Shown: one piece after another, positions 12,246 to 59,148 of the stretch
Numbering within the stretch: the first letter of the stretch is position 1
Layout: every line of letters starts with the position of its first letter
Source of the DNA: Antedon mediterranea
Lineage: Eukaryota; Animalia; Echinodermata
Assembly: GCF_964355755.1 (NCBI RefSeq)
Contig: NC_092673.1
Span: forward strand, 6,572,001-6,636,000
DNA length: 64,000 nt
Direction: 5' to 3'
Made by a program: the position numbers and the translations under genes
Notes under the pieces: generated by a model
What the model was told of the DNA's origin: nothing
The model's database searches: none
Seen by the model: the letters and a program-made list of their open reading frames with translations, nothing else

Positions 12246-12254
12246 GGAATTTCC
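12246..12254. promoter_or_regulatory. NF-kB-like site GGAATTTCC in the divergent intergenic region
   Basis: Motif match only; conserved in copy 2 (52963-52971) next to a TATATAAAT tract. Confidence 0.3.
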
Positions 12255-21200: not shown

Positions 21201-21546
21201 TCTGTTTGGAGTTTTAAGTCTGATGACATTTCGTAATTCTGTCCGATTTCTCTGTTGAAATGTTCTAATCCTAATGATTCACGTGACAGCTTCTGCTCTA
21301 GGTCATTAAGTTTGTCTTTCATTGATTGTAATGATGCTTTCGTCATTTCTGGTTTACATTTCGTTGCGTTACATAACCTGTTCCACTTTTCGATGTACTC
21401 AATTCGTATTGGATGCAGTTTGTCGATGCTATATCGGTCGGACATTAACCTAATAAACCCATAGAAATATTTCCTTTTTACAAGTGAGTTCTTAAAAGAC
21501 GCTCTAAACAACTTATACGTACACTTCTTAAGTTGGTGTTGGTTTA
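18212..21546 (-). pseudogene. VLIG/GVIN-like GTPase copy 2, 3' part (GTPase domain and C-terminus)
   Basis: Open frame paralogous to roughly aa 458-1564 of copy 1; homology stops at the left end of the Helentron nest (21547). Confidence 0.92.
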
Positions 21547-21601
21547 TTGGTTATCCGCACTTGGCGGATAACCCCTTGTTATTGTCAGGATCTTTTTTTT
21601 T

Positions 21602-22824
21602 GGTTATCCGCACTTGGCGGATAACCCCTTGTTATTGTCAGGATCTTTTTTTTTTTTTTATTTTTCTTTTTCTCTTTTTTTTTCTATTTTCTTCTTTCTT
21701 TCCACAAATTTTGTTGCTAGTGTATCTCTAAATCTTCTTAACATAACATTGTATAACTTTATCAGAAGATTAACCTCTAACTGAAGATGTCGTAATAAGG
21801 TTTTCAGTCGCGTCCGAGTTGCGCAGCGTAAGTTACGCGCGATTTTATGAATTTCAATGATTGATCATAGAATAAAAACTAAAAGTTTTTTTGTATTGAA
21901 ACTTGGTGAAAATTTAAGTCATATCATGCGCTAACTTTCTATGGAGAGAAAATGGCATGTTTTAAAGAAAGTTACGCGCGCACGCGCGTTTAAAATTTCA
22001 AAATGCGTAAAATCAATTTCTAATCAACTTTCTAGGCGTTTCAGGTCATTTTGAGCATTTAAAAAATTCCCACGTGTGCGCAATTTTTTTACGCGCGCGT
22101 GCGCACTTAGCCCAAAAACATCTTTTTTTTCCTTGATTTTTGTTTTTTCAGCCTTTTCTAGTAAATTTACCAATTTTCAATCAATTTCGACTTAAAATCA
22201 CGTCATACGAGCACGTAGAATTGAACAATTTGCGCGCGTTTTTGATGAAAAAGTTCAAAAATTCGTCAAAATTATGCCTTTTTTAAAACAGTCATAGATT
22301 CTAAACTCTGTGGCGAACTTTTTTAAAATTTCAGATTCTGGAAGTAGATTAGTTGTAGATAACAAATCATGCATCGATATGGCTAACCGGACATTGTGAC
22401 GTCATCGTATGGCCACCCGAATACAAAATATAGGATTTTTTTCTCTTTCATCATAGCTCGTCAAATTTAATAGAGCGCATCTCTACTTATCCGTATTCCA
22501 TTTCCCTCAATTTTTTTATTTTGTCTAGGTCAATCAATTATCTTTCGCATGATATACCGTTTTTAAAATTGTGATGACGTCATCATGTCCAAAAGCGTCA
22601 ATAACTTTGGTCACTTATTTTCACCTATTCTGAACTGTATGTAGTACGTATACAATATATAGTGTATACCGTGTATACTTAGACGTGACGTAAAATAGAG
22701 AGCGCACTAACATTTTTTCAATGGCATAATGTTTTTCTCTGGGCAATATTCTAACGTATGACGTGCACGTGGCTTTTGCTCTGCGGATAACCTAACTCGT
22801 CCGTAGTGACGAGTTCAAATCTAG
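21602..22824 (+). mobile_element. Complete non-autonomous HINE (E2), ~1.22 kb
   Basis: Left hairpin/subTIR at 21602, T-tract, body, then right subTIR + stem-loop + CTAG ending 22824. Confidence 0.9.
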
Positions 22825-25559
22825 TTGGTTATCCGCACTTGGCGGATAACCCCTTGTTATTGTCAGGATCTTTTTTTTTTGGTTATCCGCACTTGGCGGA
22901 TAACCCCTTGTTATTGTCAGGATCTTTTTTTTTTTTATTTTTCTTTTTTTTCTATTTTCTTCTTTCTTTCCACGAATTTTGTTGCTAGTGTATCTCTAAA
23001 ACTTCTTAACACAACATTGTATAACTTTATCAGAAGATTGAACTCTATCTGAAGATGTCGTAATAAGGTTTTCGGTCACGTCCGAGTTGCGCAGCGTAAG
23101 TTACGCGCAATTTTATGAATTTCAATGATTGATTATAGAATAAAAACTAAAAGTCATTTTGTATTGAAACTTGGTGAAAATTTAAGTCTTAACATGCTCA
23201 AACTTTCTATGGATTAAAAATGGCTTGTTTGACAGAAAGTTACGCACGCACGCGCGTTTAAAATTTCAAAATGCGTAAAATCAATTTCTAATCAACTTTC
23301 TACGCGTTTCAGGTCATTTTGAGCATTTCAAAAATTCCCACGCGTGCGCAATTTTTTTACGCGCGCGTGCGCACTTAGCGCAAAAACATCTTTTTTTTGC
23401 TTAATTTTTGTTTTTTCCGCCTTTTTTTTAGCAATTTTACCAATTTTTAATCAATTTCGACATAAAATCACGTCATACGAGCACGTAGAATTGAATAATT
23501 TGCGCGCGTTTTTGATGAAAAAGTTCAAAAATTCGTCAAAATTATGCCTTTTTTAAAACAGTCATAGATTGTAAACTACGTGGTGAAATTTTTTTAAATT
23601 ACATACTCTGGAAGTTGATGAGTTGTAGATATCGAATCATGCATGAATATGGCTAACAACACATTGTGACGTCATCGTATGGCCACTGGAATATAAAATA
23701 TAGAATTTTTGTCTCTTTCGTCATAGCTCACCACATTAAATAGAGCGCATCTCTACTTATCCGTATTCCATTTTCTCCCATTTTTTTATATTGTGTAGGT
23801 CAATCAATTATCTTTCGCATGATTCACCATTTTTTTCAATTATGATGACCTCATTATGTTCAAAAGCATTAAAAACTTTGGTCACTTATTTTCACCTATT
23901 CTGCACTGTATATAGTACGTATACAGTACATAGTGTTATACTGTACTTAGACGTGACACAAAATAGAGAGCGCACTAACATTTTTTCAATGGCATAATCG
24001 TTTTTCTGTGTGCAATATTCAACGTATGATGTGCACGTGGCGTTTGCGCTGCGGTAAACCTGAATCAAATTTGTTTATTTTTTTTTCTATATTCTTCTTT
24101 CTTTCCACGAATTTTGTTCGCAGCGTATCTCTACTTCTGGTCAACATAAGATTGTATAACTTTGTCAAAAGATTGACCTGTAGCTTTAGATGTGCAATGA
24201 TGTTAGAGTCGCGCAGCGTAAGTTACGCGTTATTCTATGGAATTTTATGGTTGCTCGTAAATTTTTAAGACAAAATTATTTTTCAATGAAACTTTACGAA
24301 AGTTTATTTCATAATATTGTGCAACTTTTGAAATAATAAAAATGGCGTGCTACGCAAAAATTACGCGAGTACGAGTGAAATTTTAAAATGCGGAAAATTA
24401 ATTTCTATTTAATTTGTGTACATTTCAGGTCATTTGGAGCTTTTCAAAATTTTCTAAATTGTTTGCGTTTTGCGCACGCACATGTGCGCACAGCTAGTAC
24501 AAAGCGTAGAAAATATGTTTTGCAATTGATTTTGTTCATATGCCTACGTTTTATAGTAGATTTATTTCATTTTCATGATTTTTTTTTGCAAATTAACGAT
24601 GCACGTGCATGTTGAACTTTAGAAATCGTGTGCTAAAGAATGGGTAATATAATACAAATTTGTGCAAAACTATTCCTATTTTTATTCAGTTATAGCTCCT
24701 CAGGATGGCAGGTTACCCCGTTTTTTTTATGTATTATGGAAGCTAATGAGACGTCACCATATGGCCACTCGAATTTTGAAAATAGATTTTTTTCTCTTTT
24801 GTATTAGTTAATCCCATTTAACTGAGCGCATAGTGCCAATGCGTTTGAACAATGTTCTTGACAAATCAATTTTCTTTCACACATGAGTTAACAAAGTGAC
24901 CCACGTGATTAACATTTATGGAAATGGTTGAATTGTGGATATAAAGTCATATACAAATTATGTCCATCTGATTTCATGACATCATCATATGGCCAGTTGA
25001 ATTTGAATAGTCAGATTTTCATCTATTTCGTAAAACTTAATCGTGTTTAAAATAGAGCGCATCTCAGGTTAACTTGCTCCAATAGATATAACATTTCTGA
25101 TAAAACTAATATTATCACAGCATGACTGTTAAAAATAATCTTTTATTTCAAGCAAATTGAAGAAAACACACAAATCTGTATAAAATGTTCCGTATACCGG
25201 TATTTATATAAGCTTTCATTGGTTATTGCAAATGGTACAAAATTGTCAACATATAGTAGGCTGTTTATACTATACAGTAGTTCATCAACATTTTGGTGAT
25301 CAGTAACTTTACTTAGTACATTATTACATGGTAATTTGTTAGTTGAGGATTCATTAAACGCATATTTATTGATCTATTTATAGAAGATTCTTATTTTTTA
25401 ACAATCATTAATATGATTAATAATTTAATCTTTAGCCGCGTTTAGACAATTTTCATGAAAGAGCGAATGACTGCATTAGTGACTGCCTAAGAATCCGGAT
25501 CCCATTATAATTGAAGAAATGAAACCATTCCACTGAACACCTGAAAACGAAAACAAAAT

Positions 25560-26330
25560 AAATTGATTATTCTTGCAAATGTGTAAATTACTGTATTAGT
25601 AATTTCATGTGGACCTGCATAGATAGAAAAAAAAAACTGAAAGTATGTATGGACCTAATGAAGTATTGGAAATCGTATAAAACAAAATGTATTTCTTCTT
25701 CTGTAAATTGTAACTTTTTATTTTTAACATTACTTGAATACCGGTAGATATTGAAAGATTATTATGTGCAGAGATTGCAACATTGCATATTCAAATTCAG
25801 AACAATATTTATAATAATATAACTCACATAAAAACAAGATTAAAATGTGTTTACTCACCAGATATTGTTTCTCCTATACAGGAGAATGACATGGGTTGAA
25901 GTTACAGATTATTCGCTGCCCCTCTTGCATCGATAATAAATTGATTATTTTTCCAATTGAGTAAATTACTGTATTAGTAATTTCATGTGGACCTGGATAG
26001 AAAAAAAAAGAATATAAAAAAACAATTATACAACTGAAATTATGTATAGACCTAATGAAGTATTGGTAATCGTATAAAACAAAACGTATTTTCTTCTTTT
26101 GTGAAATGTAACTTTTTATTTTCAACATTACTTGAATACTGGTAGATATTGAACGATTATTATGTACAGAGATTGCAACATTGCATATTCAAATTCAGAA
26201 CAATATCTATAATAATATAACTCACATAAAAACAAGATTGAAATGTGTTTAGACACCAGATATTGTTTTTCCTATACAGGAGAATGACATGGGTTGAAGT
26301 TACAGATTACTCGCTGCCTCTTGTGCATAG
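25560..26330. repeat. ~378-bp direct duplication downstream of the transposase ORF
   Basis: gtaaattactgtattagtaatttcatgtggacctg at ~25583 and ~25961 with colinear flanks. Confidence 0.85.
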
Positions 26331-26458
26331 AGGGTCATAATGATTTTCAGCTTGTTTTTATCAAATTGGTTTTTTTTAATTTGTATCCAGTTCTATTTTC
26401 AATTCCTAAAAAGTTTTTACAGAAATATAATTCAAATACTTAAAAACCATTGATGCAA

Positions 26459-29400
26459 TTAAAATTTAATTTGAATGGCTTCATGATAGCTATAATAAAT
26501 TGGAATTACTTCAGCCTGTACTGAATCAATACCTTTGCTATAAACATGATCAATCAATGTATTGTTTTCAGTTGTAGAACATGTAACATGTTGTTTGTAC
26601 TCATTCTCTGCCATTAAATTATTCACTCTGGAAGATTGTTTGAAAAGATTTTCATTAAAATCACCCATTACAATACATTTTGTGCTCATTTTATGTAACT
26701 CTTCCAAATATTTTCTCAAATTTTGACAGAATTGATTAATATCATAACTTGGGGGTCGATAAATTACTGACACGGCAACAGAAATCGGACTTGTTATTAA
26801 AAATGAAACTGCTTCTATATCATTATTACATATGTTTAATCTGCTTGAAGACGTATTCTTCGCATACACTGCAACGCCACCATGAGCCTGATGTTTTATT
26901 TTGGAACTGAGATCATTTGTATTAGAATACGAATCATACCTTGCTTGGTGATACAATTTATACGGCTCAATGCGTACGTCAAAAAAATCATCATCCTTGT
27001 TTAACCATGTTTCAGTTAGACATATGATATTAGAATTCATAAACAAATCATTACACTGAAGATCAACAAAATGTTGTTTAAGCCCTTGAATGTTATGTAA
27101 CATTATTGAAAATCTAGAAGCCGAATCATGACCTTGTTTATCACATTGTACGTATGAATCCATATTATTTAAGCACTTCTTTATGTTTGGATCACAATAA
27201 ATCAGACTAGGTTTAAAATTTTCAATAGTAAGTCCAGTTATTGAAGTAACACGACTGAGGCCTACATATGCTTGACCATGCGTAAAAGTATCTTTAAGGC
27301 AAACCACTGCTTTATCCATTGTCATTCCTTGCACTTTATGAACTGTGCATGCATATGCTAATTTGAGAGGAAATTGTTTTCGACTGTATTTTTTCCCCAT
27401 AGATTCTTTAAACATTTCAATTGCCTGAATACCAATGTCATTATTGTCAAATTTTACTTTAATAGATACTGGTTCGGTGTTATGATCAGGTTTGACTATT
27501 TCATCAACATGTCCCATACATCCATTCGTTAAGCCTTTTTTAACATCTACATTTTTAATCAACATCACTCTGGCATTAATTGCAATCCACAAATAATTTA
27601 GTAAACTAGTTTGACGTGAATTCCGAGGTTTGTCACAATTTTTGCTCTGTTTCTTGCTATTTACTACACTATCTTCTGCTTTAATGCATACAATATCTGT
27701 ACAGGTTTTGTGCAACATTTTTTTATTCCATTCATCAACTTGTTTGTTGCGTGGGTAAATATGAACAGCATCTTCACATTCTTCACCTGTTTCACGTGAT
27801 TTTAGAACTAATAAATCGTTATCAGACAAACAATCATGTTTTTCTTTTGTACGCAATTTGTTTAACAATAAAGCAAATTGTTTATCTTCTTTTTGCCTCA
27901 TGATTTGATCTAACTGTACTTGCTTAAAGTTATCTATCCACAGTGAGCTTTCCAATGTGTCTTTATATAACGAACTGCCCATCACCGGGGGTAACTGATA
28001 AAAATCACCAACAGCAATTACTGAAATGTTACCAAATGAACTATCGTTGCGTACTTGTTTTATTTGCCTTAATCGTCCGTGGATATACCAAAGTAACCTT
28101 TGATTTACCATTGATATTTCATCTATAATAACAATTTGCAACTGGCCCAATTTATTACGAAGTGTACTTATTTTTTCTTCTCCAAGTGGTTGATACGGAA
28201 GTGAAATATTAATCGGGATAGACAAAGCACTATGAATTGTTTGGCCTTTAATATTATATGCTGCGATTCCTGTAGGAGCTAATTTCAATATTGACAAATC
28301 ATCGGGATTTTCCATAATCTTTCCAAGAATACGTGTCGCTTCATTATAAATACAATTTACCAAATGACTTTTTCCTGTACCAGCGCCTCCAGTTATGAAA
28401 GTGTAAAATGCTTCAGGTTTTTTACCATTAACTTTGTCTAAACACCATTGTCTTGTCTTATAAAATATATGTTGTTGTTTTTCATTTAAAGATCGAATCA
28501 TTTTGTTCAATTCTGGTCTTGGAATATTAGATGAATTAGACTCTACTTTAGATGTATGATTTTTTTGAATTCCAAAATCTGGAATGAAAAGTTCATCTTC
28601 TTCATCATCAACCTCTACATTTGGCTTTGGGTTGTCTAACCTTTCTTTTTCGCTTTCTGGACATAATAGGCTCCATGCATCTTCTTGTGGTCCAAATTTT
28701 GATAAACATTCCTGTGCTTCTTCAACATCATCAGCACTTTTTTCATATTGTTCCCTGTTTCCATGAACTATTGACTTTACCGTTTGTAATTGACAGCCAC
28801 ATAATTTCACACATCCTTTCTCATGAAATTGTTCATACGATTCAAAATTTGGAGGTTTTAACTGTTCATCTTTTCGAAATGGTAGAAATAACTGAAGTAT
28901 ACTCAAAAAATATTTCTCAGGTGCTGTATCCATTGGAAATCGAGGGTATCTTACTATAGCATTACTAGTTCGTGTTCTTTTTTGGATGAATCCCAACTGT
29001 TTTTTTAACTGAAATACATTCTTTTTTTGTTTGTTTCCTTTCATTTCTGATGAACTCAATATTCTATATTCCGAACAAAATTTTGCAAGGCACATTTTAT
29101 TAAATTCAGAACTATTAGGTCGAGCTTTATATTTGTCGATCTTATTTGGCAACCATGCACTTACATCATCATCTGCTTTGTTTTTAATTACACTTAGTGG
29201 TAAACTCATTCTGACAGGATTAGGTCCTACTGGGATAAATTCAACTTTCCTTGAACATTCTTTTAATCTTAAACTACAAACACGATAAATACTTTCTTGT
29301 GCAGACACTTCTCGATTATTCATATAAACATTACCAAGTTTTCGCAAACTTTGCCTAGCATCTTCATTGCCTTCTTTCACTTCTGATGCTGCATGAGATA

Positions 29401-32400
29401 ACAGTAAGCCCATTTCTCGTTCAGATTTTGACATATATCCTATAACGTAAATAATACATGCATATACATTTGTAATATACTGAATATCCATATTAGCATT
29501 CCATGCTTTCAATAAAGAAGGATTATATTGATTTACCCACACATCTTGAGGGTTTCTCTTTATAACAATCTTTTCTTCAGTAGCTACACAATTATTTGCT
29601 TTCTCAAATGCACTCTGTGTAATACCTAAACTTTGGAAAAGTTCTATTGCATTTTTATATGTTTCTTCATTGGTCACAGCATCTTTTACTGAGGTTAATA
29701 GCTCCATTGCTTGTTTATTGTCATCATTATCATCACTGCCTTTATCCACAATTGTAGGTCTCATAACAAATGTATTTCCAGAAGGTTGTCTGGGGAAGTT
29801 AAATCTACAGTTTGTTCCCTTTTTTTTACATGATTTAGAATGTCTTTTACTGTGAATTTGCACACTTTTAACAATTTCATTCAGTTCGGGATCTACAGTT
29901 TCACATGGCACAGCACAAGAAATATATTTATCGACAAAATTAATAACTTCGTTATCTTTATCTGTACCAAAAATAGGAGCATTTTCAACCCATACTAACA
30001 TATGAACATGTGGACTTCCTCTCATTTGAAATTCAATTCGGTAAAAATAATCTACGACTTTACCAATAGGCTGTGCTTCAGACAAAATTACATTTTTCAA
30101 AAAAGTATGAAAACGTTTGTCAAACATTCTGGCAACAGTCACTGGATTTGATTTCAACAAATTACATTTATCTGCCCATTCCAATTCATCAATGTTTCTT
30201 TGGTCTCCTGACTGATTTAACAATGTCGTCATTATTTCTTTCCAACGGAAGTCAGCACTTGAAAATGAAAGAAAGAATGTTGGCTTTCCAATCTGTCTAA
30301 CCATTGCTATTACATCTTTTTGTGTAGCTTGCCAGTATGGTGGAGTTCCACGAATTTGTTTTAAAAATTTATAACCCCTATCAGATTTTAAAATCTCCTC
30401 AATTTTGGTAACATTTTTTAAATCGGATACAGTAACTTTACTAAAATCATCCTTTTTACTTGACCCTTTTCGCAATGCAATGGAAATACTTGATAAAATT
30501 TGTTGAAGTTCATATAAAGATTGAGCATAAAATATGAATTCTGTATTTTGTGCAAACCTGTTATCTATATGCATTAATCTATTGTGAAAATAACGTCCAA
30601 GTGTTATTTTAACATCTCTCGTATCATGGAATGTTGGTTGGCCTGTTGGAAATAACACTGGAAATGATTTTGCTTCATTGCTTTTATTACTTAACAATGC
30701 AATAGGACTATTATTTTCACATGGTGCACAACAAATTATGTCATTAAAATATTCATCAACCAAATTTTGTCGCCTGTCAACAGGTTGAAGACTTGTATCA
30801 AAGGTAGCACCACACAATTGATCTTCTACTTCTACCTCTTCTTCTTCAATGTTTTCTACACATGTTTCATTTTCTTCTTCTTCATTGTTTTCATCTTCAT
30901 TAGTAGTTTCACTTTCGATGTTATCTTCAGATAAATAATTGTGCCATTCTTCATTAATAGCTATATCAAAATAGCACTTGTTATAATCTTGTAAATATCT
31001 AAGAGCTTGAATAACATTGGCAGTGTTAACAAATTTATATTTGTAATAACCTTTGTAAGACAACTTTCGCTTCAATTTTACAGATATTAATTGATCATCA
31101 ACCTGTGGTCTAGGCAGCATTTTAACAGTTTCAATAGTATTTGAAGGTACACATACAACAGGTCCATGTATTCCATGCTGTCCACCTTTAGGTAAATTCA
31201 TTAATTTCATAAAAGGAATGTTTAATCCAATCAAATGCTGCTCTAAATTATTTAAACACCTGAGCTCAGGAGGAATATCGTGTAGTTGTAAATTGTTTGA
31301 ATTGGCTTCTGCAGGGACTTTACCGTTTAACAATTTTCTGTGGCATGTGAAACAAATCCATAAACGACATCTTGGTGATTCAATCAATTGACAAATTTTA
31401 TTACATTCATTGTTGCAAATATGCAAATACTTTTCATTTATACAAGCCTTATTTTTGTACTTAGATTTGGTGCACTTCATTACTTGGTCTTTGAATAACG
31501 TTTTAAAGCAAACAGAACAAACATATTCAGGACCACGAGAAATTGTTTCCCTGAAGTTTTCTAATACAAACTCAAAATTTGTGTTTTCTGTTTTTATTTT
31601 TTCCCGATTCTTCATGTTTTTCTTTATAATATTTTTTCGGAACCCTTCATCACCATGATACTTTTCTGTAAATCTTTGCTTACACTTTTGCTTACATCTT
31701 TGACGAAATATTGAATTATCTCGATATTTCTCTGCCAATTTCTGCTTACAGTTTTGTCTAAATTTCAAATTACTCCGATACTTTTCAGCCAATTTGTCTT
31801 TGCATTTTCGTCTAAATTTCAAATTAATCCGATACTTTTCTGCCAATTTGTCTTTAAAGTTTTGTCTAAATTTCAAATTACTCCGATACTTTTCAGCAAA
31901 TTTTTCTTTACAGTTTTGTCTAAATTTCAAATTACTCTGATACTTTTCTGCCAATTTGTTCTTCCATTTTTGTCTAAATTTCAAATTAGTCCGATACTTT
32001 TCAACAAATTTTTCTTTACAGTTTTGTCTAAATTTCAAATTACTTTGATACTTCTTTGTCAATTTTTGGGTAATGTTTTCTCTGAATTGAGAATTAGTAC
32101 AATACTTCTCTGCTAAATTTTGCTTCAAATTTTGTCGAAATTGTGGATCATTGTGATATCTTTCTTTATTTCTTTGTTTATTATTTTGCCTAGTTTTATG
32201 TTTAAACATTGTATCATTGTTGTATCTATTCTTCATTGTTTCTTTTTTTGTTGTTCGGTAATCCAAATTAATTTTGTAGTTATTTCTAGCTTTATTTCGT
32301 ACCTTAAGATTATATTCAGGTTCACATCTATACATTTTGTGTTGTCTTTCTCTGTTTTCCTTCCTTTTTTGAAATTTATAATCATCATCAGCATATCTTA

Positions 32401-35400: not shown

Positions 35401-35833
35401 ATTGACTACAACAGTCACATGTTATGCAATTGTCGTCTACTTTCACTTCAATATTACAGAAATCGCATGTATCATCAAACTCTGAAGTGACCTCTGTACC
35501 ATAAGATAATGTGTTTATGATATCATCAATTATTCCTTTAAATTCAGTTGTATCTTTCATAAATTCACAATTGACATTACCTGTATCATCATTTCTCTCG
35601 TCTTTGACATTCTCAGTTGAACAGCATTCATCAAGTAGGTCCAAGATGTCATTAACAACTATTTTAAATTCTGCTGTCTTATCCATAACTCCATTATTAA
35701 CATTACCAGTTGTATTAACAAAAATCTGCTTTTTACTTGTAACTTCTTTATTCACATTTTTACACAAATAAATTATCATTGTAAAGATAATCAACAAAAA
35801 GATACCAACTAATGTTATAAATTCCATATCCAT
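26459..35833 (-). CDS. Helentron Rep/helicase/AP-endonuclease transposase, 3124 aa
   Basis: HUH Rep YRIEFQMRGSPHVHML and YVIGYMSK; Pif1 motifs GGAGTGKS, IIDEISMV, VGDFYQLPPV, QFPLKLAYACTVHKVQG, GQAYVGLSR; APE motifs HNIQGL, CLTETWL, GDFNE, IDHVY; OTU GDGNCFYRAIS...HFNVV; C76-like GKQCVANS...FDPHAR; N-terminal PHD C4HC-type finger. Confidence 0.95.
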   Translation of the reverse strand: MDMEFITLVGIFLLIIFTMIIYLCKNVNKEVTSKKQIFVNTTGNVNNGVMDKTAEFKIVVNDILDLLDECCSTENVKDERNDDTGNVNCEFMKDTTEFKGIIDDIINTLSYGTEVTSEFDDTCDFCNIEVKVDDNCITCDCCSQYFHVKCVRDVFEDKLCNSRVIWICSMCGNSNFVDNMLGEIGITCHFNRYTILEPDESVTADFPELTKNKEKRNNAKLKWQQTGSEDLLGSDWMKVRSKKRTDNRKKRCKNRGNKKRRKRVINGISIEPGVKYIGKGVKDFYERRNNNKMEWNMNTNTYREYNKENAKMNVLGNSQTIIDDSGRPMCDVLKNTKVTHGIQQQSGGGSKRLRNNKGRFVKTKKIDNKKAQGNVDLNLKNDCDTTERFGKDIKNMGNNENCETKTDEDFEMECTVENDNTATDDAKAQNNSKMNDRSRIIDSNGTDNKNQTCASCEFEENEVLIIDDGCKKAVTEKVRSHTKPKCDQHTIDVDIEVLTKNNFSKELIIDNVPKQKNTRKRQKTQSINELQVYNSNENITVAQGNFNQGNYRFGFASGKQCVANSLVAILYSTKKNGNEFYTKDLDTILTLGNELYCYIQKDSTMHEDLLMISELPKELDILENTFVISPKESVFGIIDGNLELMAEYGALSLNQALEQELHQHDAFFMNFNRSTFSIIKRVNGFLIFDPHARDRFGCVSEHGKSILLYSPSWQGVYDYCIRLARSMNCNLHETEFELTGVNIENKSMMLCSASVLDDNCEQSNLGNVDVDEPSTSYQYKCSTRLPDKNIDYKVKGKTHNKEGHVSSSNEWQSDSDIEIVNVQYGERPDENFKFNPISEAQKKNMCKEVGIHCEHTDMNCGINRASQIGHPLQIKNITGDGNCFYRAISYIISGTEDNHLILRRAITNHLLETDDLFINTFSHEYRSVKEYVFKKRVMDNGTWASNTEISAMANLLNTDIYSFNDQLLTWQLFSAKKPGRIDDVTTDNGIYILYTMNVHFNVVESVNVSQNNVQETTGLVDMNVTSHNKLSNTEANFFVKNSTTKKRKQTGNNETCETFEDIEPKHKKSKTAEGHCSGNEVKMLRRKRKISYENRKQREKNRQRMKRRRQTKDNSKEKNENRNKHQSDLPYREEKKRKVKEAQQIRYADDDYKFQKRKENRERQHKMYRCEPEYNLKVRNKARNNYKINLDYRTTKKETMKNRYNNDTMFKHKTRQNNKQRNKERYHNDPQFRQNLKQNLAEKYCTNSQFRENITQKLTKKYQSNLKFRQNCKEKFVEKYRTNLKFRQKWKNKLAEKYQSNLKFRQNCKEKFAEKYRSNLKFRQNFKDKLAEKYRINLKFRRKCKDKLAEKYRSNLKFRQNCKQKLAEKYRDNSIFRQRCKQKCKQRFTEKYHGDEGFRKNIIKKNMKNREKIKTENTNFEFVLENFRETISRGPEYVCSVCFKTLFKDQVMKCTKSKYKNKACINEKYLHICNNECNKICQLIESPRCRLWICFTCHRKLLNGKVPAEANSNNLQLHDIPPELRCLNNLEQHLIGLNIPFMKLMNLPKGGQHGIHGPVVCVPSNTIETVKMLPRPQVDDQLISVKLKRKLSYKGYYKYKFVNTANVIQALRYLQDYNKCYFDIAINEEWHNYLSEDNIESETTNEDENNEEEENETCVENIEEEEVEVEDQLCGATFDTSLQPVDRRQNLVDEYFNDIICCAPCENNSPIALLSNKSNEAKSFPVLFPTGQPTFHDTRDVKITLGRYFHNRLMHIDNRFAQNTEFIFYAQSLYELQQILSSISIALRKGSSKKDDFSKVTVSDLKNVTKIEEILKSDRGYKFLKQIRGTPPYWQATQKDVIAMVRQIGKPTFFLSFSSADFRWKEIMTTLLNQSGDQRNIDELEWADKCNLLKSNPVTVARMFDKRFHTFLKNVILSEAQPIGKVVDYFYRIEFQMRGSPHVHMLVWVENAPIFGTDKDNEVINFVDKYISCAVPCETVDPELNEIVKSVQIHSKRHSKSCKKKGTNCRFNFPRQPSGNTFVMRPTIVDKGSDDNDDNKQAMELLTSVKDAVTNEETYKNAIELFQSLGITQSAFEKANNCVATEEKIVIKRNPQDVWVNQYNPSLLKAWNANMDIQYITNVYACIIYVIGYMSKSEREMGLLLSHAASEVKEGNEDARQSLRKLGNVYMNNREVSAQESIYRVCSLRLKECSRKVEFIPVGPNPVRMSLPLSVIKNKADDDVSAWLPNKIDKYKARPNSSEFNKMCLAKFCSEYRILSSSEMKGNKQKKNVFQLKKQLGFIQKRTRTSNAIVRYPRFPMDTAPEKYFLSILQLFLPFRKDEQLKPPNFESYEQFHEKGCVKLCGCQLQTVKSIVHGNREQYEKSADDVEEAQECLSKFGPQEDAWSLLCPESEKERLDNPKPNVEVDDEEDELFIPDFGIQKNHTSKVESNSSNIPRPELNKMIRSLNEKQQHIFYKTRQWCLDKVNGKKPEAFYTFITGGAGTGKSHLVNCIYNEATRILGKIMENPDDLSILKLAPTGIAAYNIKGQTIHSALSIPINISLPYQPLGEEKISTLRNKLGQLQIVIIDEISMVNQRLLWYIHGRLRQIKQVRNDSSFGNISVIAVGDFYQLPPVMGSSLYKDTLESSLWIDNFKQVQLDQIMRQKEDKQFALLLNKLRTKEKHDCLSDNDLLVLKSRETGEECEDAVHIYPRNKQVDEWNKKMLHKTCTDIVCIKAEDSVVNSKKQSKNCDKPRNSRQTSLLNYLWIAINARVMLIKNVDVKKGLTNGCMGHVDEIVKPDHNTEPVSIKVKFDNNDIGIQAIEMFKESMGKKYSRKQFPLKLAYACTVHKVQGMTMDKAVVCLKDTFTHGQAYVGLSRVTSITGLTIENFKPSLIYCDPNIKKCLNNMDSYVQCDKQGHDSASRFSIMLHNIQGLKQHFVDLQCNDLFMNSNIICLTETWLNKDDDFFDVRIEPYKLYHQARYDSYSNTNDLSSKIKHQAHGGVAVYAKNTSSSRLNICNNDIEAVSFLITSPISVAVSVIYRPPSYDINQFCQNLRKYLEELHKMSTKCIVMGDFNENLFKQSSRVNNLMAENEYKQHVTCSTTENNTLIDHVYSKGIDSVQAEVIPIYYSYHEAIQIKF
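31690..32160 (-). repeat. 54-bp coding repeat (18 aa, KYRSNLKFRQNCKEKLAE-like)
   Basis: ctaaatttc recurs at 31758, 31812, 31866, 31920, 31974 and 32028, with degenerate flanking units. Confidence 0.9.
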
Positions 35834-36369
35834 TATTCAAAATTTGTATAAGAAACAAATCTACAAATTTCTTCAAATTAATAAACTTTGTATTCTGCAA
35901 TTCCAATGAATATTACAATTAGGTTCTTTTTATCAATTCAAGAAATTCTTGCTAAAACAAAATAAATTATTAAAATTCCAAAAACAATTCAATTTTATAT
36001 TGTCTTTTGTTTCTATGATTTTTAATTTTTGTCCTAATTTTTTTTCTTTTAATATATTTTTTTTTTGTCTGCTTTTTTTTCAATAGTTCAATTTCACTGA
36101 ATTAAAAAATTAGCTTCTGCTTAATATTGGCTTGATGAAATACTTTATATTATTTTAAACTTCTCTTTAATACTTGGTTATGCTAAATAGTTTCAGATTC
36201 TAATTTTTATTCTTTTTACAATTCTACTTAATAACAGATTCAAATAAAAGTGATCTTTAAATCTTCTTTAATTAATTCTTTTGTAATAAACTCTGTTTAA
36301 TATTTATTTCTTTATAATAAGCTTCTGTTTTATTCTTCAAACTTTTGTTTGTATAATCAAACTTTAACT

Positions 36370-36640
36370 TTACACTTTTGCTTTTGCAAAAATGGTTTTG
36401 TAATAAACTTTTGTTTATTAGTTGTTTCCTTGTGATTAACTTCTGTTATCTTCAAGGTTTGACACTTTTGCTTTTGCAAAAATGGTTTTGTAATAAACTT
36501 TTGTTTATTAGTTGTTTCCTTGTGATTAACTTTTGTTATCTTCAAGGTTTTACACTTTTGCTTTTGCAAAAATGGTTTGTAATAAACTTTTGTTTATTAG
36601 TTTTTCCTTGTGATAAACTTCTGTTTACTTCAAGGTTTTA
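36370..36640. repeat. 90-bp minisatellite x3
   Basis: acacttttgcttttgcaaaaatgg at 36372, 36462 and 36552. Confidence 0.92.
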
Positions 36641-37374
36641 TTGAATGTTTCAAAGATACTTTTAAAAAATGTTTAAAAAGAAATTGTGCATAAATATTAA
36701 AATTCGGTAACCCCTCGTAGAAACTCTCTTTGGAGAGTGGATCTTTTTCTAAAGACCCGGATCTCTTCTGAGATCCAGTGGGTTTATATAAGACAGTCAC
36801 CTACAATAAAAGAAAAAAAAAGAGTTAGTTATTAATTTTAAGATACACTGTACAGTACTAAGAATTACAGTCAAACAATTATAAATTGAATCAGTAGATA
36901 AATCAGTGTTTTTACAAATACCTAAATAATAATATACACATCCCCCCTGTGGAATGTAACATGATCTATTGGGCCTAGCAAAACAAATTAGGACCAACTC
37001 ATTACTAAATTCAGGATAGACCCATTTTATAAAATTGCAAATTTATGTCTGGAGAAACTGACCACCACATTTATGTTAAAAAGGATGATTGTCCCAAATT
37101 TTGAAGTAAATTGTGATAATATATTTGTGACTTTGGTTTATACAATATAAATAAATCACTATAGAAGATATTTTGACCTAAAAATATGTCAAAACTTCAT
37201 TACATGGAATGTGTCGGAAACAAATTCTTTCATAACAATTTCACCTTCAAAATTAATCTGAAAATAGGTTTAATTATTCAATGTTCTAATAAAATAGAAT
37301 TTTATACACAAAAATATTTGGTCACTCAGTATAGTAAATTTACAAACAACACATGTTTATCAATTATTGGAGGG

Positions 37375-40300
37375 CATAAAGTAAGGAAAATATGTTTTTT
37401 CCGTTTTACAGATAATTTTCTAATACTCACAGCTCTAACTGGCACTGTATATTTTCTGTACAACTACAATCTAAAAAATAAAAGGAAAATCATTAATAAT
37501 GGCAATAAACAACATTAACACTTTTTCAAAATCAACATGCTTCTTAATCAATGTCTGAAAAATTAAGAAATTTTCTCAAAATGAATTTGGGTATTAGACA
37601 GCTGGTTAGGGCCTACATGTTGTCTCAATGCTAATTTCATTTAATATTTTATTCACAAACCATAAAATCTGATTTATGTAAATGTTTCATAATAGAACGT
37701 GCCTACAAAATAACAGGCAACGGTTCACAAAGTAAAGAAAATATGTTTTATCCGTTTAACAGATAATCTACTAATACTCACAGCTGTAGCTGACACTGTA
37801 TATGTTCTACAATCTAAAAAAAAAAACAAGGAAAAACATTAATAATTGGCAATAAACAACAATAATACTTTTTCCAAATCAACATGCTTCTTAATCAATG
37901 TCTGAAAAATTAAGAAATTCCTCAAAATGACTTTGGGTATGAGACAGCTGGTTAGGCCTACATGTTGTCTTAATGCTAATTTCATTTAATATTTTATTCA
38001 CAAACCATAAAATCTGAATGATGTAAATGTTACATAATAGAAAATGCCTACAAAATAACAGGCAACGGTTCACAAAGTAAAGAAAATATGTTTTCTCCGT
38101 TTAGCAGATAATCTACTAATACTCACAGCTGTAGCTAACACTGTATATTTTCTACAATCTAAAAAAACAAAACAAGGAAAAACATCAATAATTGGCAATA
38201 AACAACATTAACACTTTTTCCAAATCAACATGCTTCTTAATCGAGGTCTGAAAAATTAAGAAATTTCCTTAAAATGACTTTAGGTATGGGACGGCTGGTT
38301 AGGGCCTACATGTTGTCTCAATGCTAGTTTCATTTAATATTTTATTCACAAACCATAAAATCTGAATTATGTAAATGTTTCATAATAGAAAATGCCTACA
38401 AAATAACAGGCAACTGTTCACAAAGTAAGGAAAATATGTTTTCTCCGTTTAACAGATAATCTACTAATACTCACAGCTGTAGCTAACACTGTATATTTTC
38501 TACAATCTAAAAACAACAAGGAAAAACATTGATAATGGCAAAAAACAACATTAACCCTTTTGTTAAATCAACAAGCTTCTTAATCAATGTCTGAAAAATT
38601 AAGAAATTTCCTCAAAATAACTTTGGGTATGGGCCGGCTGATTGGGGTCTACATGTTGTCTCAAAACTACTTTCATTTAATATCTTATTCACAAACCATA
38701 AAATCTGAATTATGTAAATGTTTCATAATATAAAATGCCTACAAAATAACAGGCAACAGTTCACAAAGTAAGGAAAATATGTTTTCTCTGTTTAACAGAT
38801 AATCTACTAATACTCACAGCTGTAGCTGACACTGTATATTTTCTACAATCTAAAAAAACAAAACAAGGAAAAACATCAATAATTGGCAATAAACAACATT
38901 AACACTTTTTCCAAATCAACATGCTTCTTAATCGAGGTCTGAAAAATTAAGAAATTTCCTTAAAATGACTTTAGGTATGGGACGGCTGGTTAGGGTCTAC
39001 ATGTTGTCTCAATACTACTTTCATTTAATATCGTATTCACAAACCATAAAATCTAAATTATTTAAATGTTTCATAATATAAAATGCCTACAAAATAACAG
39101 GCAACAATTCACAAAGTAAGGAAAATATGTTTTCTCCGTTTAACAGATAATCTACTAATACTCACAGCTGTAGCTGAAACTGTTAATTTTCTACAATCTA
39201 AAAAAAACAAGGAAAAACATTAATAATGGCAATAAACAACATTAATACTTTTTCCAAATCAACATGCTTCTTAATCAATGTCTAAAAAATTAGGAAATTT
39301 CCTCAAAATGACTTTGGGTATGGGCCGGCTGATTGCGGCCTACATGTTGTCTCAATGGTAATTTCATTTAATTGTTTGATCACAAACAATAAAATCTGAA
39401 TGATGTAAATGTTTCATAATAGAAAATGCCTACAAAATAACAGGCAACAGTTCACAAAGTAAGGAAAATATGTTTTCTCCGTTTAACAGATAATCTACTA
39501 ATACTCACAGCTGTAGCTGAAACTGTTAATTTTCTACAATCTAAAAAAAACAAGGAAAAACATTAATAATGGCAATAAACAACATTAATACTTTTTCCAA
39601 ATCAACATGCTTCTTAATCAATGTCTAAAAAATTAGGAAATTTCCTCAAAATGACTTTGGGTATGGGCCGGCTGATTGCGGCCTACATGTTGTCTCAATG
39701 GTAATTTCATTTAATTGTTTGATCACAAACAATAAAATCTGAATGATGTAAATGTTTCATAATAGAAAATGCCTACAAAATAACAGGCAACAGTTCACAA
39801 AGTAAGGAAAATATGTTTTCTCTGTTTAGCAGATAATCTACTAATACTCACAGCTGTAGCTGACACTGTATGTTTTCTACAATCTAAAAAAAAAACAAGG
39901 AAAAACATTAATAATTGGCAATAAACAACATTAACACTTTTTCCAAATCAACATGCTTCTTAATCGAGGTCTGAAAAATTTAGAAATTCCTCAAAATGAC
40001 TTTGGGTATGAGACAGCTGGTTAGGGCCTACATGTTTTCTCAATGCTAATTTCATTTAATATTTTATTCACAAACCATAAAATCTGAATGCTGTAAATGT
40101 TTCATAATAGAAAATGCCTACAAAATAACAGGCAACTGTTCACAAAGTAAGGAAAATATGTTTTCTCCGTTTAACAGATAATCTACTGATACTCACAGCT
40201 ATAGCTAACACTGTATATTTTCTATAATCTAAAAACAACAAGAAAAAACATTGATAATGGCAATAAACAACATTAACCCTTTTGCTAAATCAACATGCTT

Positions 40301-41696
40301 CTTTATCAATGTCTGAAAAATTAAGAAATTTTCTCAAAATAACTTTGGGTATGGGCCGGCTGATTGGGGTATACATGTTGTCTCAATACTAATTTCATTT
40401 AATATCTTATTCACAAACCATAAAATCTGAATTATGTAAATGTTTCATAATATAAAATGCCTACAAAATAACAGGCAACAGTTCACAAAGTAAGGAAAAT
40501 ATGTTTTCTCCGTTTAACAGATAATCTACTAATACTCACAGCTGTAGCTGAAACTGTTAATTTTCTATAATTTAAAAAAAACAAGGAAAAACATTGATAA
40601 TGGCAATAAACAACATTAACACTTTTTCCAAATCAACATGCTTCTTAATCGAGGTCTGAAAAATTAAGAAATTCCTCAAAATGACTTTGGGTATGAGACA
40701 GCTGGTTACGGCCTACATGTTGTCTCAATGCTAATTTCATTTATTATTTTATTCACAAACCATAAAATCTGAATGCTGTAAATGTTTCATAATAGAAAAT
40801 GCCTACAAAATAACAGGCAACTGTTCACAAAGTAAGGAAAATATGTTTTCTCCATTTAACAGATAATCTACTAATACTCACAGCTGTAGCTAACACTGTA
40901 TATTTTCTACAATCTAAAAACAACAAGGAAAACATTGATAATGGCAATAAACAACATTAACCCTTTTTCCAAATCAACATGCTTCTTAATTAATGTCTGA
41001 AAAATTAGGAAATTTCCTCAAAATGACTTTGGGTATGGGCCGGCTGATTAGGGCAAGCAACAGTTCACAAAGTAAGGAAAATATGTTTTCTCCATTTAAC
41101 AGATAATCTACTAATACTCACAGCTGTAGCTGAAACTGTTAATTTTCTACAATCTAAAAAAAACAAGGAAAAACATTGATAATGGCGATAAACAACATTA
41201 ACACTTTTTCCAAATCAACAAGCTTCTTAATCAATGTCTGAAAAATTAAGAAATTTCCTCAAAATAACTTTGGGTATGGGCCGGCTGATTGGGGTCTACA
41301 TGTTGTCTCAATACTACTTTCATTTAATATCTTATTCACAAACCATAAAATCTGAATTATTTAAATGTTTCATAATATAAAATGCCTACAAAATAACAGG
41401 CAACAGTTCACAAAGCAAGGAAAATATGTTTTCTCCGTTTAACAAATAATCTACTGATACTCACAGCTGTAGCTGAAACTGTATATTTTCTACAATCTAA
41501 AAAAAACAAGGAAAAACATTGATAATGGTAATAAACAACATTAACACTTTTTCCAAATCAACAAGCTTCTTAATCAATGTCTGAAAAATTAAGAAATTTC
41601 CTCAAAATAACTTATTTTATTCACAAACAATAAAATCTGAATTATGTAAATGTTTCATAATAGAAAATGCCTACAAAATAACAGGCAACAGTTCAC
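37375..41696. repeat. ~345-bp satellite array, about 13 units, inside the Helentron
   Basis: The tactcacagctgtagct anchor recurs about every 343-350 bp from ~37425 to ~41465; internally deleted units at ~41050 and ~41610. Confidence 0.95.
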
Positions 41697-42721
41697 TCCC
41701 AATCATGAAACCATTAATCATCTCTACAAACTATTTATTTAATATACACTACTTACAATATTCTAGAGATACTAAAGTAGAAACAATTGTGTATCTCTTC
41801 CAACAGCTACAAGACAAAAATATATTATTATTATAAATATCAATACAAATTGTGATCAAAACATCCACAATATTTGTAACAATGACAGGTGCGAAAGGGA
41901 ACTGCGCTGACCTACGTCACTACTACTAGGACTACTGGAGTAAGCCTAGACAACATGCTATTGTAAGAAGAACGAGTCATTGTTTCTTCTCTTTAAGAAT
42001 TTATACAACTAAAAATTAAGCTAGAGTTAATATAATATAAGCAAGGTGCAAAAGGGAACTAGCGCCGTTTAGTCCTACTAAAAACAGCAAGTATTCTTGT
42101 ACAGGCTAGGCCTAGGTACACTATGAATGTAGCAGACATATTTGTTCGTATTTACCGGGACCGTATTTAACATACACATGGCCATACACGATTGTCGTGC
42201 TGCTACGAAAGCCATCGGGCTGAAAAACGTCACGACGTTTGCCGGCCATCTCTGAAAGTCTGACATCCTTCCGTATATCTATAGGCTAGTAGGCTAGGGT
42301 ATCGTTAGTAAGTAGAAATTACAAAACAACTACAAATCAAACAATCCACATAATTTCTTACCTATTTCTTATAGTATATCAATTCTCAACAAACTTGAGT
42401 TTGTTATTTATTTATTTAATCGTTGAAGTTCGACGATATAAAATGGTATTTGTAACAATATTATCAGAGAGCGACTCTTAAAAACCAACATGGAGTTTAC
42501 CAACGACATACCACAACACAACACGTTGTCGAATTTTCTCGAAATTCGGTTCACCTACAGTATGGCATGCAATCCTCGCCAAAATTACCAATATTTAACG
42601 AATAACGAAAATTAGTTTTCACGTCAGACCTATTATATGTATTCTACGTGTATATTAGACGTTGCGTTTTCGCGGATAACCTAACTCGTCCGCAGTGACG
42701 AGTTCAAATCTAGTCTTTTTT

Positions 42722-43931
42722 GGTTATCCGCACTTGGCGGATAACCTCTTGTTATTGTCATGATCTTTTTTTTTTTTTTTTTTTTTTTCTTTCTTATTCT
42801 TCTTTCTTTCCCAGAATTTTGTTGCGCGTGTATCTCTAAATCTTCTCAACATAACATTTTGTAACTTTATCAGAAGATTGATCTCTATCTGAATATGTCG
42901 TAATAAGGTTTTCGGTACCGTCCGGGTTGCGCAGCGTAAGTTACGCGCGATTTTATGAATTTTGCGTATTTAATTTAGATCGAAAACTATTAAACCATTT
43001 ACATTGGAACTTGGCAAAAGTTTAATTTATATCATGCGCTAACTTTCTATGGAGAGAAAATGGCATGTTTTAAAGAAAGTTACGCGCGCACGCGCGTTTA
43101 AAATTTCAAAATGCGAAAAATCAATTTCTAATCAACTTTCTACGCGTTTCATGTCATTTTGAGCATTTCAAAAAATCCCACGCGTGCGCACTTTTCTTAC
43201 GCGCGCGTGCGCACGTAGCGCAAAAACATCTATTTTTTCCTTGATTTTTGTTTTTCCAGCCTTTTCTAGTAAATTTACCAGTTTTCAATCAATTTCGACT
43301 TAAAATCACGTCATACGAGCACGTAGAATTGAACAATTTGCGCGCGTTTTTGATGAAAAAGTTAAAAAATTCGTGAAAATTATGCCTTTTTTTAAAAAGT
43401 CATAGATTCTAAAGTCCGTGGTGAAAATTTTGAAAATTTCAGATTGTGGAAGTAGATGAGTTGTAGATATCATATCATGCATCGATATGGCTAACCGGAC
43501 ATTGTGACGTCAACGTATGGCCACTCGAATATAAAATATAGGATTTTTGTCTCTTTCTCATAGCTCATCACATTTAATAGAGCGCATCTCCACTTATCCG
43601 TATTCCATTTCCCCCATTTTGTTATATTGTCTAGGCCAATCAATTATCTTTCGCATAATCTACCATTTTTTAAATTGTGATGACGTCATCATGTCCAAAA
43701 GCGTCAATAACTTGGGTCCCTTATTTTCACCTATTCTGCACTGTATGTTGTACGTATACAGAATATAGTGTATACCGTATATACTTTGACGTGACACAAA
43801 ATAGAGAGCGCACTAACATTTTTTCAATGGCATAATCGTTTTTCTGCGCGCAATATTCTAACGTATGACGTGCACGTGGCCTTTGCGCTGCGGATAACCT
43901 AACTCGTCCGAAGTGACGAGTTCAAATCTAG
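42722..43931 (+). mobile_element. Complete non-autonomous HINE (E5), ~1.21 kb
   Basis: Left end at 42722; right end CTAG at 43928-43931. Confidence 0.9.
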
Positions 43932-46255
43932 TTTTCTTTCTTATTCTTCTTTCTTTCCCAGAATTTTGTTGCGCGTGTATCTCTAAATCTTCACAACATA
44001 ACATTATATAACTTTATCAAAAGATTTACCTCTATCTGAAGATGTCGTAATAAGGTTTTCGGTACCGTCCGAGTTGCGCAGCGTAAGTTACGCGCGATTT
44101 TATGAATTTCGAGAATGTCATTTAGATCGAAAACTATTAAACCATTTAAATTGAAACTTGGCAAAAGTTTAATTTATATCATGCGCTAAATTTCTATGGA
44201 GAGAAAATTGCATGTTTTACATAAAGTTACGCGCGCACGCGCGTTTAAAATTTCAAAATGCGAAAAATCAATTTCTAATCAACTTTCTACGCGTTTCATG
44301 TCATTTTGAGCATTTCAAAAATTCCCACGCGTGCGCACTTTTCTTACGCGCGCGTGCGCACGTAGCGCAAAAACATCTTTTTTTTGCTTGATTTTTGTTT
44401 TTCCAGCCTTTTCTAGTAAATTTACCAATTTTCAATCAATTTCGACTTAAAATCACGTCATACGAGCACGTAGAATTGAACAATTTGCGCGCCTTTTTGA
44501 TGAAAAAGTTTAAAAATTCGTGAAAATTATGCCTTTTTTAAAAAAGTCATAGATTCTAAACTACGTAGTGAACTTTTTTTAAATTACATATTCTGGAAGT
44601 AGATGAGTTGTAGATATTGAATCATGCATCAATATAGCTAACCGGACATTGTGACGTCATCGTATGGCCACTCAAATATAAAATATAGGATTTTTGTCTC
44701 TTTCGTCATAGCTCATCACATTTAATAGAGCGCATCTCCACTTATCCGTATTCCATTTCTCCCCATTTTTACATATTGTCTAGGCCAATGAATTATCTTT
44801 CGCATGATATATCGTTTTTAAAATTGTGATGACGTCATCATGTCCAAAAGCGTCAATAACTTTGGTCACTTCTTTTCACCTTTTCTGCACTGTATGTAGT
44901 ACGTATACAGTATATAGTGTATACCGTATATACTTAGACGTGACACAAAATAGAGGGCACACTAACATTTTTTTCAATGGCATAATCGTTTTTCTGCGCG
45001 CAATATTCTAACTTATATCGTGCGCGTGGCTTTTGCGCTGCGGATAACCTAACTCGTCCGAAGTGACGAGTTCAAATCTAGTTTTTTTTTTATTTTTTTT
45101 CTTTTTTTTCTTTTTTCTTCTTTCTTTCCCAGAATTTTGTTGCGCGTGTATCTCTAAATCTTCTTAACATAACATTGTATAACTTTATCAGAAGATTGAC
45201 CTCTATCTGAAGATGTCGTAATAAGGTTTTCGGTCCCGTCCGAGTTGCGCAGCGTAAGTTACGCGTGATTTTATGAATTTCAATTATTGATCATAGATTA
45301 AAAACCAAAAGTCATTTTGTATTGAAACTTGGTGAAAATTTAAGTCATATTAAGCGCAAACTTTCTATGGATTAAAAATGGCAGGTTGTGCAGTAAGTTA
45401 CGCGCGCACGCGCGTTTAAAATTTCAAAATGCGAAAAATCAACTTCTAATCAACTTTCTACGCGTTTCATGTCATTTTGAGCATTTCAAAAATTCCTACA
45501 CGTGCGCATTTTTTTTACGCGCGCGTGCGCACGTAACGCAAAAACATCATTTTTTGGCTTGAATTTTGTTTTTCCTGTCTTTTTTTAGTAGATTTACCAA
45601 CTTTCAAACAATTTCGACTAAAAATCACGTCATACGAGCACGTAGAATTGAAAAATTTGCGCGCGTTTTTGATGAAAAAGTTAAAAAATTCGTGAAAATT
45701 ATGCCTTTTTTAAAAAAGTCATAGATTGTAAACTACGTGGTGAACTTTTTTAAAATTACATATTCTGGAAGTTGATTAGTTGTAGATTTCGAATCATGCA
45801 TCGATATGGCGAACCGGACATTGTGACGTCATCGTTTGGCCACTCAAATATGAAATATAGGATTTTTGTCTCTTTCGTCATAGCTCGTCACATTTAATAG
45901 AGCGCATCTCCCCTTATCCGTATTCCATTGCCCTCTATTTTTTATATTGTCTAGGTCAATCAATTATCTTTCGCATGATTCACCATTTTTAAAATTTTTA
46001 TGACGTCATCTTGTTCAAAAGCGTCAATAACTTTGGTCCCTTATTTTCACCTATTCTGAACTGTACGTAGTACATATACAGTATATAGTACATACTGTAT
46101 ATACTCAGACGTGACACAAAATAGAGAGCGCACTAACATTTTTTCAATGTCATTAATCGTTTTTTTTTTGCGCGCAATATTCTAACGTATGACGTGCACG
46201 TGGCTTTTGCGCCGCGGATAACCTAACTCGTCCGTAGTGACGAGTTCAAATCTAG

Positions 46256-53118: not shown

Positions 53119-53640
53119 GGTTATTATAATGGTACCATGGAACTATTTATAGGTCCATAGTGGTTCTGAATGTTTTTGATATATTGCTAGGCAGAAGTTT
53201 CCAAACTTAAATTTTCAATTTATATTATGGCCTGTGGTTACGTCACAGCCAATCACCTGGCCAAATCGGATTCCTTGATCTGGGACTGGTTGGTTATTTT
53301 AGTGGTACCATGCAACTATTTATAGGTCCATAGTGGTTCTAAATATTTTTGATATATTGATTGCTAGGCAGCAGTTTCCAAACATAAATTTTCAATTTAA
53401 ATTATGGCCTGTGGTTACGTCACAGCCAATCACCTGGCCAAACCGGATTCCTTGATCTGGGACTATGGTTGGTTATTATAGTGGTACCATGGAACCATTT
53501 ATAGGTCCATAATAGTTCTAAATGTTTTTGATATATTGCTAGGCAGCAGTTCCCAAACTTAAATTTTCTATATTATGGCCTGTGGTTACGTCACAGCCAA
53601 TGACCTGGCCAAATCGGATTCCTTGATCTGGGACTGGCTG
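53119..53640. repeat. ~175-bp triplication in the intergenic region of copy 2
   Basis: ttataggtccata anchor at ~53147, 53320 and 53499; single in copy 1 (~12371-12555). Each unit carries TTACGTCA and CCAAT. Confidence 0.9.

Positions 53641-59097: not shown

Positions 59098-59148
<51 letters not shown>

Follow-up and report, generated by a model that had tools for sequence, protein, structure and literature searches.

A 24.7-kb block of nested Helentron-family transposable elements interrupts the minus-strand gene of a GVIN/URGCP-type very large GTPase in Antedon mediterranea. The block spans positions 21547 to 46255 of the window, meaning the whole stretch of 64,000 nucleotides of contig NC_092673.1 that was analysed, and all coordinates refer to that window. 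The preferred reading, held at a probability of roughly 60%, is that six Helentron-family copies, one of them with an intact transposase, came to occupy a single TTT site of the GTPase gene by repeated self-insertion through a preference for T-rich DNA. Self-insertion into the T-tract behind the left end of a resident copy is the simplest origin of the stacked left ends in the block and of its headless bodies, which begin in a T-tract and lack a left end. The locus is a clear animal example of Helentron self-insertion in which both halves of the split hosts are kept, and the family looks young and abundant, with an intact transposase.

Ends, bodies and order of the nested copies

A scan of both strands of the 64-kb window detects the left hairpin motif, exact, at 21549, 21602, 22827, 22881 and 42722, and the right-end motif, exact, with 3' limits at 22824, 42713, 43931, 45081 and 46255, all on the plus strand. 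No further match to either motif is present on either strand of the 64 kb when up to three substitutions are allowed. This agrees exactly with the five left and five intact right ends listed in an earlier note on this DNA, and the order L L R L L R L R R R (L, left; R, right) that was given there holds for the intact ends. A 10-bp inverted repeat is present at all five left and all five right ends, which are asymmetric in the manner of Helentrons. The left hairpin has a predicted 10-bp stem (−11.3 kcal/mol, z −6.2), and the right hairpin is predicted at −6.9 kcal/mol (z −1.6, with 16 of 200 shuffles equally good). The first four left ends (L1 to L4) are identical over 44 bp and the fifth (L5) has two changes, while the right ends differ from each other at 0–1 of 42 positions.

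The block opens with an outermost orphan left end, L1 (21547..21601, plus strand), recognised by motif and fold and consisting of TT, the hairpin, a 19-bp tail and T9. It is followed by element B (21600..22824, plus strand), by its motifs a complete non-autonomous copy with left end L2, a T-tract at 21646–21703, body b1 and right end R1. Only TT separates R1 from the second orphan left end, L3, with its T10 (22825..22880, plus strand; motif), so that the two ends meet exactly at 22824/22827, as CTAG TT GG, and could also be read as head-to-tail copies. The next segment (22879..24050, plus strand; motifs) comprises L4, a T-tract and body b2 of the non-autonomous type, and is now the left end of the autonomous unit. 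The doubled left ends L1–L2 and L3–L4 have tandem periods of 53 and 54. The autonomous unit closes with an intact right end, R2 (42672..42713, plus strand), which shares 42 bp with the small copies, with unrelated DNA upstream of it. The spacer TC plus T6 behind it (42714..42721, plus strand) is read as a fragment of the tract of the host element; a cryptic Helitron1-like start at this TC was considered and put down to chance. Beyond the spacer lies element E (42720..43931, plus strand; motifs), a complete non-autonomous copy with L5, a T23 tract, body b3 and R3. The last two segments, body b4 with R4 (43932..45081, plus strand; 94% identical to b3, with the same tract type) and body b5 with the outermost right end R5 (45082..46255, plus strand; motifs), both begin in a T-tract and lack a left end, as the earlier note had claimed.

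Comparison and fold prediction reveal a degenerate sixth right end, R* (24051..24073, plus strand), which terminates body b2. It retains the 10-bp inverted repeat with two changes and the letters TCAAAT, the hairpin is lost, and no fold is predicted (z 0.06). It is followed by b2' (24074..24452, plus strand), the third T-tract with a headless body, which is 72% identical to the other bodies over 400 bp, has weaker similarity to about 25060, and is likely the left subterminal region of the autonomous element itself. A 15-letter marker that closes the T-tract and opens the body occurs six times (21689, 22957, 24092, 42797, 43944 and 45115). The totals are thus five left and six right ends with a bracket sum of −1, and the pairing of left with right ends is therefore not unique. 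The balanced five-element bracket parse of the earlier note overlooked the sixth right end and is not supported. Three parses fit the letters, in which the body that would lack a left end is b2', b4 or b5, and each of them assumes that five joins took place and that one left end was lost. Body b4 sides with b3 at 22 of the 62 informative sites and has the same tract type, which slightly favours b4 as the body without its own left end over the pairing of L3 with b4 proposed earlier. The two changes in L5, the left end of b3, are absent from L1 to L4 and are too few to settle the pairing of b4, and the informative sites among the five bodies conflict (12:13, 25:9, 13:6 and 15:5).

The autonomous unit harbors a transposase frame of 3125 aa from stop to stop (26459–35836, minus strand; open reading frame and domain search) that is uninterrupted. 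Its domains are Herpes_teg_N (PF04843, E 5e-8), OTU (PF02338, E 3e-9), DUF6570, Helitron Rep (PF14214, E 4e-37), Pif1 helicase (PF05970, E 3e-28) and a C-terminal AP endonuclease (PF03372, E 7e-9), and catalytic motifs, with the HUH and two-tyrosine motifs of Rep among them, are recognisable at residues 1940, 2120 and 2483. By its domains and ends, the block carries a predicted autonomous Helentron with an intact transposase frame, and the Helentron assignment of the earlier note is borne out by Rep, Pif1, AP endonuclease, OTU, end structure and TT target together. The frame is antisense to the left-to-right direction of the element ends, an arrangement known for a minority of Helentrons (PMC4067079, PMC3627910, PMC5148889). 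A canonical Helitron1 was rejected as an identity for the element; the start is T(T)GG and not TC, the target is T and not AT, inverted repeats are present, and only the 3' CTAG is shared. The transposase has 454 relatives at E 1e-50 or better. Among the best 120 of these 454 that are listed, the five best are from Antedon mediterranea, with 79–92% identity over 45–100% of the searched region, and the closest listed relatives have the same domain set. Eight pattern matches to the transposase in viral contigs yielded no confirmed relative, the exact left-end motif has no match in metagenome and viral contigs, and the right-end motif has none in metagenome and prokaryote contigs.

The target of the block is visible at an empty site near 8024 in a paralog of the interrupted gene, in which three bases are replaced by TT, the block and TTT. 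This corresponds to a TTT target, a net gain of 2 T and insertion at TT without target site duplication, as judged at one empty site from the paralog gene.

The small copies contain no open frame of 120 aa. Their right end is 97.7% identical to R2 over 43 bp and their bodies are 70–79% similar to the left region of the autonomous element, which marks them as HINE-type non-autonomous derivatives sharing its ends. The bodies are 88–94% identical to each other, with no pair above 94%. The combination of nearly unchanged ends, diverged bodies, open gene halves and an open transposase frame fits young arrivals from different source copies. A recent local duplication of b3 into b4 was rejected, as the two bodies are 6% apart although the ends are unchanged. 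Outside the block, the non-autonomous family is also represented by an older fragment at 2098–2545 on the minus strand, which is 78% identical and in which no ends were found.

The autonomous element also contains internal repeats. A repeat scan finds an array of about 12 copies of an approximately 343-bp unit (37375..41613, no strand assigned). A 54-bp coding repeat (31686–32142, 8.5 copies) lies in the transposase frame and encodes an 18-residue basic repeat. Non-coding repeats are present at 36372–36638 (90 bp, 3 copies) and 25557–26331 (about 380 bp, 2 copies).

The T-tract as a target

The claim that the inner insertions lie in the T-tract behind a left end proves correct, in that all of them are in, or can be placed in, the tract 45–55 bp behind a left end. 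If insertion were uniform over TT sites of one element, 37 of 338 of which are in the tract, four tract hits would have P 1.4e-4, and a plain TT preference is therefore insufficient. No target in the window is richer in T than the tract. In element B, 22 of the 338 TT sites have 22 or more T among the 30 nt that follow, and all 22 lie in or at the edge of the tract, at 21636–21671 on the plus strand; the corresponding counts are 4 of 9510 sites outside the nest and 14 of 5145 in the interior of the autonomous unit. The landing-pad proposal of the earlier note consequently survives in one part and not in the other: the element does carry the T-richest site itself, whereas a transposase tethered at the hairpin is not needed given the T preference. 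This rests on the known poly-T preference of Helentrons (PMC4067079), on the presence of thousands of copies and on the T-rich flanks of independent contigs. Insertion after TTTT is likewise described for Helitron2 (PMC3627910).

These contigs are short and come from five runs; X1, X3, X4 and X6 were compared with element B, except for its left end and tract, which were masked as repeat, and X1, X2, X3 and X4 with the R1–L3–L4 junction, where none of the listed contigs bridges a left-T-left join. X1 is listed as another organism, and X3 and X4 are one sample. The flanks behind right ends differ from each other (agreement 0.48–0.49 in 27 contigs of X3 and 26 of X4). Under a symmetric null, T is the majority letter at 23 of 27 positions in X3 (null mean 12.8, P 5e-5) and at 20 of 27 in X4 (P 0.005). 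Summed depth in X3, X4 and X6 is 4,000–23,000 times that of single-locus variants, a ratio that is not a true copy number, and the contig variant table misses even hairpin-loop variants present in the window. On 22805–22826, contigs of X1, X3 and X4 share the last 20 bp of the right end and differ upstream, which suggests sister families with other subterminal sequence.

An exponential tilt model fitted to 13–15.5 T per 30 nt translates this preference into expected numbers. One tract would equal 0.9–13 kb of host DNA, 39–89% of within-element hits would fall in the tract, and about 0.001–3 nests of this shape would be expected per genome. In the model, the top of this range can explain the nest by T preference and the bottom cannot, and the predicted number would rise if composites already assembled were to transpose again.

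Several observations weigh against the preferred reading. The model takes 7,000–10,000 copies and a 300–400 Mb genome as inputs, both assumed from contig totals and depth, and its mean flank T content comes from an agreement figure. At the low end of the fit only about 0.001 nests per genome are predicted, and 1e-6 in a model without T preference. The founder, that is, the outermost insertion, is in a plain TTT site followed by only 14 T in 30 nt, a value within the top 21% of host sites, so the preference is not uniformly steep. In the model, the autonomous unit has an 18.5-kb interior equivalent to 25–35 kb of host DNA, yet no young copy lies there, which is compatible only with late arrival of the autonomous unit or with chance. 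FoHeli1 of Fusarium stacks 5' ends of 31–85 nt with a target of TNAT followed by T or A, and the available text of PMC5148889 names no T-tract as its target; this may point to a bias that comes from the 5' end. It is disputed at which end the copying of Helitron2 begins, and for the Chlamydomonas elements the 3' end has been argued (PMC3627910).

Active targeting by the element end would explain some of these points. In that account, a transposase that is bound to the left hairpin of a resident copy, or that nicks there, opens or captures the tract, so that insertions there exceed the number predicted from T content. All five inner joins are on the same strand and within about 55 bp behind a left end, a founder at an ordinary TTT site implies that plain T preference may be too weak, and long FoHeli1 copies with at least two 5' ends make up 8 of 15 in M1 and 2 of 14 in II5 (PMC13342296). 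Such targeting is possible but doubtful, as composition alone makes the tract the best T-rich target, and no tether is needed in the upper model range. In X1, depth is 220–310 on the first left end and 191 on T10 but 8.8 on the second left end, so that stacking of left ends seems rare in that run, although this drop is a weak point because contigs with other T counts are clipped and because of the organism listed for X1. Long contigs that start from right ends enter unrelated flanks, a result biased against short repeat contigs. An extended form of this account is more speculative still: transposase would be guided to left ends, small copies would capture the left ends of autonomous elements, and these would escape through loss of a terminator, as in the degenerate sixth right end, and use of the left end of the intruder. 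If true, autonomous and non-autonomous Helentrons of an animal genome would go through an inherent cycle in which ends are captured and replaced.

A head-to-tail array, formed by target re-use or circle joining and followed by T-run slippage of left ends or by 5'-truncated one-ended insertions, appears improbable. The exact R1–TT–L3 join speaks for it, and similar joins are present in independent contigs. X1 record 8 matches a right-TT-left join at 58 of 58 letters (depth 85, with only 17 letters on the right-end side), and X3 record 21 bridges the join with five other letters and two gaps; such joins fit circles and tandem copies alike. Depth in X1 on 22808–22865 is 85 at the join, 220–310 at the left end and 3–11 for single variants, and head-to-tail copies or circles may be common in the X1 organism. 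The stacked left ends are repeats of 53/54 bp that are identical and have T-runs as their limits, the end counts are unbalanced at 5:6, 5'-truncated Helitron2 insertions have been reported (PMC3627910), and dimers of transposable elements through target preference have been reviewed (PMC12628747). However, the right ends are equally identical, so the identity of the left ends is no sign of local duplication. An array requires two or three separate processes where nesting requires one, and the tract pieces flanking inserts sum to normal tracts. The orphan left ends all lie to the left of every headless body; this order is required by nesting and is not predicted by the array. A simple rolling-circle concatemer of one copy, or an assembly artefact, is very improbable. 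In its favour, no listed short contig spans either of the compared stretches, and the family is very abundant. Nevertheless, a concatemer is expected to consist of near-identical head-to-tail units, and the identical neighbouring bodies that the earlier note had named as its sign are absent; bodies that are 6–12% apart are not a concatemer of one copy. In addition, both outer boundaries match the paralog empty site to the base, and the transposase frame is open over 9.4 kb.

Proposed mechanism and known systems

In the preferred reading of repeated self-insertion, an incoming copy would integrate on the same strand in the T-tract behind the left end of a resident copy, and the landing would leave the resident in two pieces, an orphan left end and a headless body. 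Each arrival would add a tract of its own, and the locus would thus become a bigger target. Some of the joining events probably took place at other loci, and composites with two left ends or extra bodies would then have moved as units, starting at the outer end or reading through an inner one. Copying from the outer left end would halt at the first intact inner right end and produce two-headed elements, of the kind drawn for Fusarium in the legend of Fig. 7 in PMC5148889; the outer element is hence likely to be hijacked and not protected. This follows the analogy of Helraiser, in which the left end is essential and the 3' hairpin acts as terminator, with more read-through once that hairpin is deleted (PMC4778049, PMC5876387).

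The autonomous unit presents a variation on this theme. A small copy would have landed behind its left end, and the unit would have stayed mobile after the hairpin of that copy was lost. Within the unit no inner right end is present apart from the dead one, and from this one copy the arrangement fits a unit that kept moving after loss of the terminator. The dead inner end suggests how Helentrons acquire new left ends. In contrast, the suggestion that the whole nest moves as one unit needs read-through of four intact inner right ends, which are likely to stop copying as the Helraiser hairpin does, and was rejected. A safe harbour that keeps the nest mobile is unsupported too, as inner ends would intercept copying in either direction.

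The element shares with Helentrons and their non-autonomous HINE/DINE-1 partners (Thomas et al. 2014, PMC4067079; Helitron2 of Bao and Jurka 2013, PMC3627910; HLE2 of HELIANO, PMC11417382) a Rep, Pif1 and C-terminal AP endonuclease with OTU, a 5' inverted repeat that forms a hairpin and a 3' inverted repeat upstream of the hairpin. TT targets without duplication, poly-T preference, internal tandem repeats and small copies with both ends are also common to them. It differs in the CTAG before T at its 3' end and in the repeated self-targeting of the T-tract behind the left end, which the available text of these papers does not describe. Self-insertion behind the 5' end has already been published for Fusarium Helitron2, with the first 31–85 nt repeated (PMC5148889) and with copies that have two, three or five 5' ends (PMC13342296). 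The FoHeli composites share with the nest short stacked 5' ends (31–85 nt there, 53–54 bp here), which self-insertion would explain, and they move as units (PMC5148889, PMC13342296). While they mostly have several 5' ends and one 3' end, headless bodies and right ends are retained here, with an autonomous and five small copies mixed, a T-tract landing site and an animal host.

Other parallels are partial. HelenXT233 of Xenopus tropicalis (PMC11417382) is an autonomous Helentron with two direct-repeat left ends, each of which marks a non-autonomous subfamily, but neither T-tract nesting nor a dead inner right end is described in the available text of that paper. Alu elements that insert into the A-rich linker of other Alu elements (PMC2836564) are alike in targeting their own preferred homopolymer at a same-strand internal hotspot, with 15,759 sense self-insertions, although Alu is a retrotransposon with target duplications and is unrelated in mechanism and family. 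Rolling-circle tandem Helitron arrays (cited in PMC5876387 and PMC12628747) share head-to-tail joins and several 5' ends with one 3' end, whereas the units here are 6–12% apart and include headless bodies. In the literature searched, which excluded subscription papers, no account was found of an animal Helentron that forms a T-tract nest and keeps its headless bodies. The search for Antedon and Helitron returned one unrelated preprint only. The available text of a frog paper (PMC12001565) and a maize paper (PMC2773423) contains no passage on self-insertion, and that of PMC11934779 has nothing bearing on Helentron self-insertion.

A single locus establishes neither a new targeting system nor a safe harbour. 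In a family that has thousands of copies and carries a T-tract of its own, a genome census would tell T preference apart from tethering.

The interrupted gene and its surroundings

The 3' part of the interrupted GTPase gene (18212..21546, minus strand) has 1112 open codons and 95.7% DNA identity to the paralog at 3969–8024. The 5' part with upstream DNA (46259..48922, minus strand) has 459 open codons beside the block and 91% identity to 8027–10720, so both halves of the gene remain open. The intact paralog (4699..9402, minus strand; open reading frame and domains), of 1567 aa from stop to stop, matches PF25683 and PF25496 in a domain search. The two genes form a duplicated pair in which one copy is intact and the other is split by the nest, and they belong to a tandem segmental duplication of the region (3969–16833 versus 17486–21546 and 46258–60947) with 78–96% identity by piece.

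Direct and inverted copies of a 346-bp repeat and three copies of a 177-bp repeat are present at 48960–51880 and 53119–53641, and they have no BLAST match to the Helentron array. An endonuclease frame at 56389–57516 on the plus strand (PF14529, PF03372) likely belongs to a non-LTR (long terminal repeat) retrotransposon.

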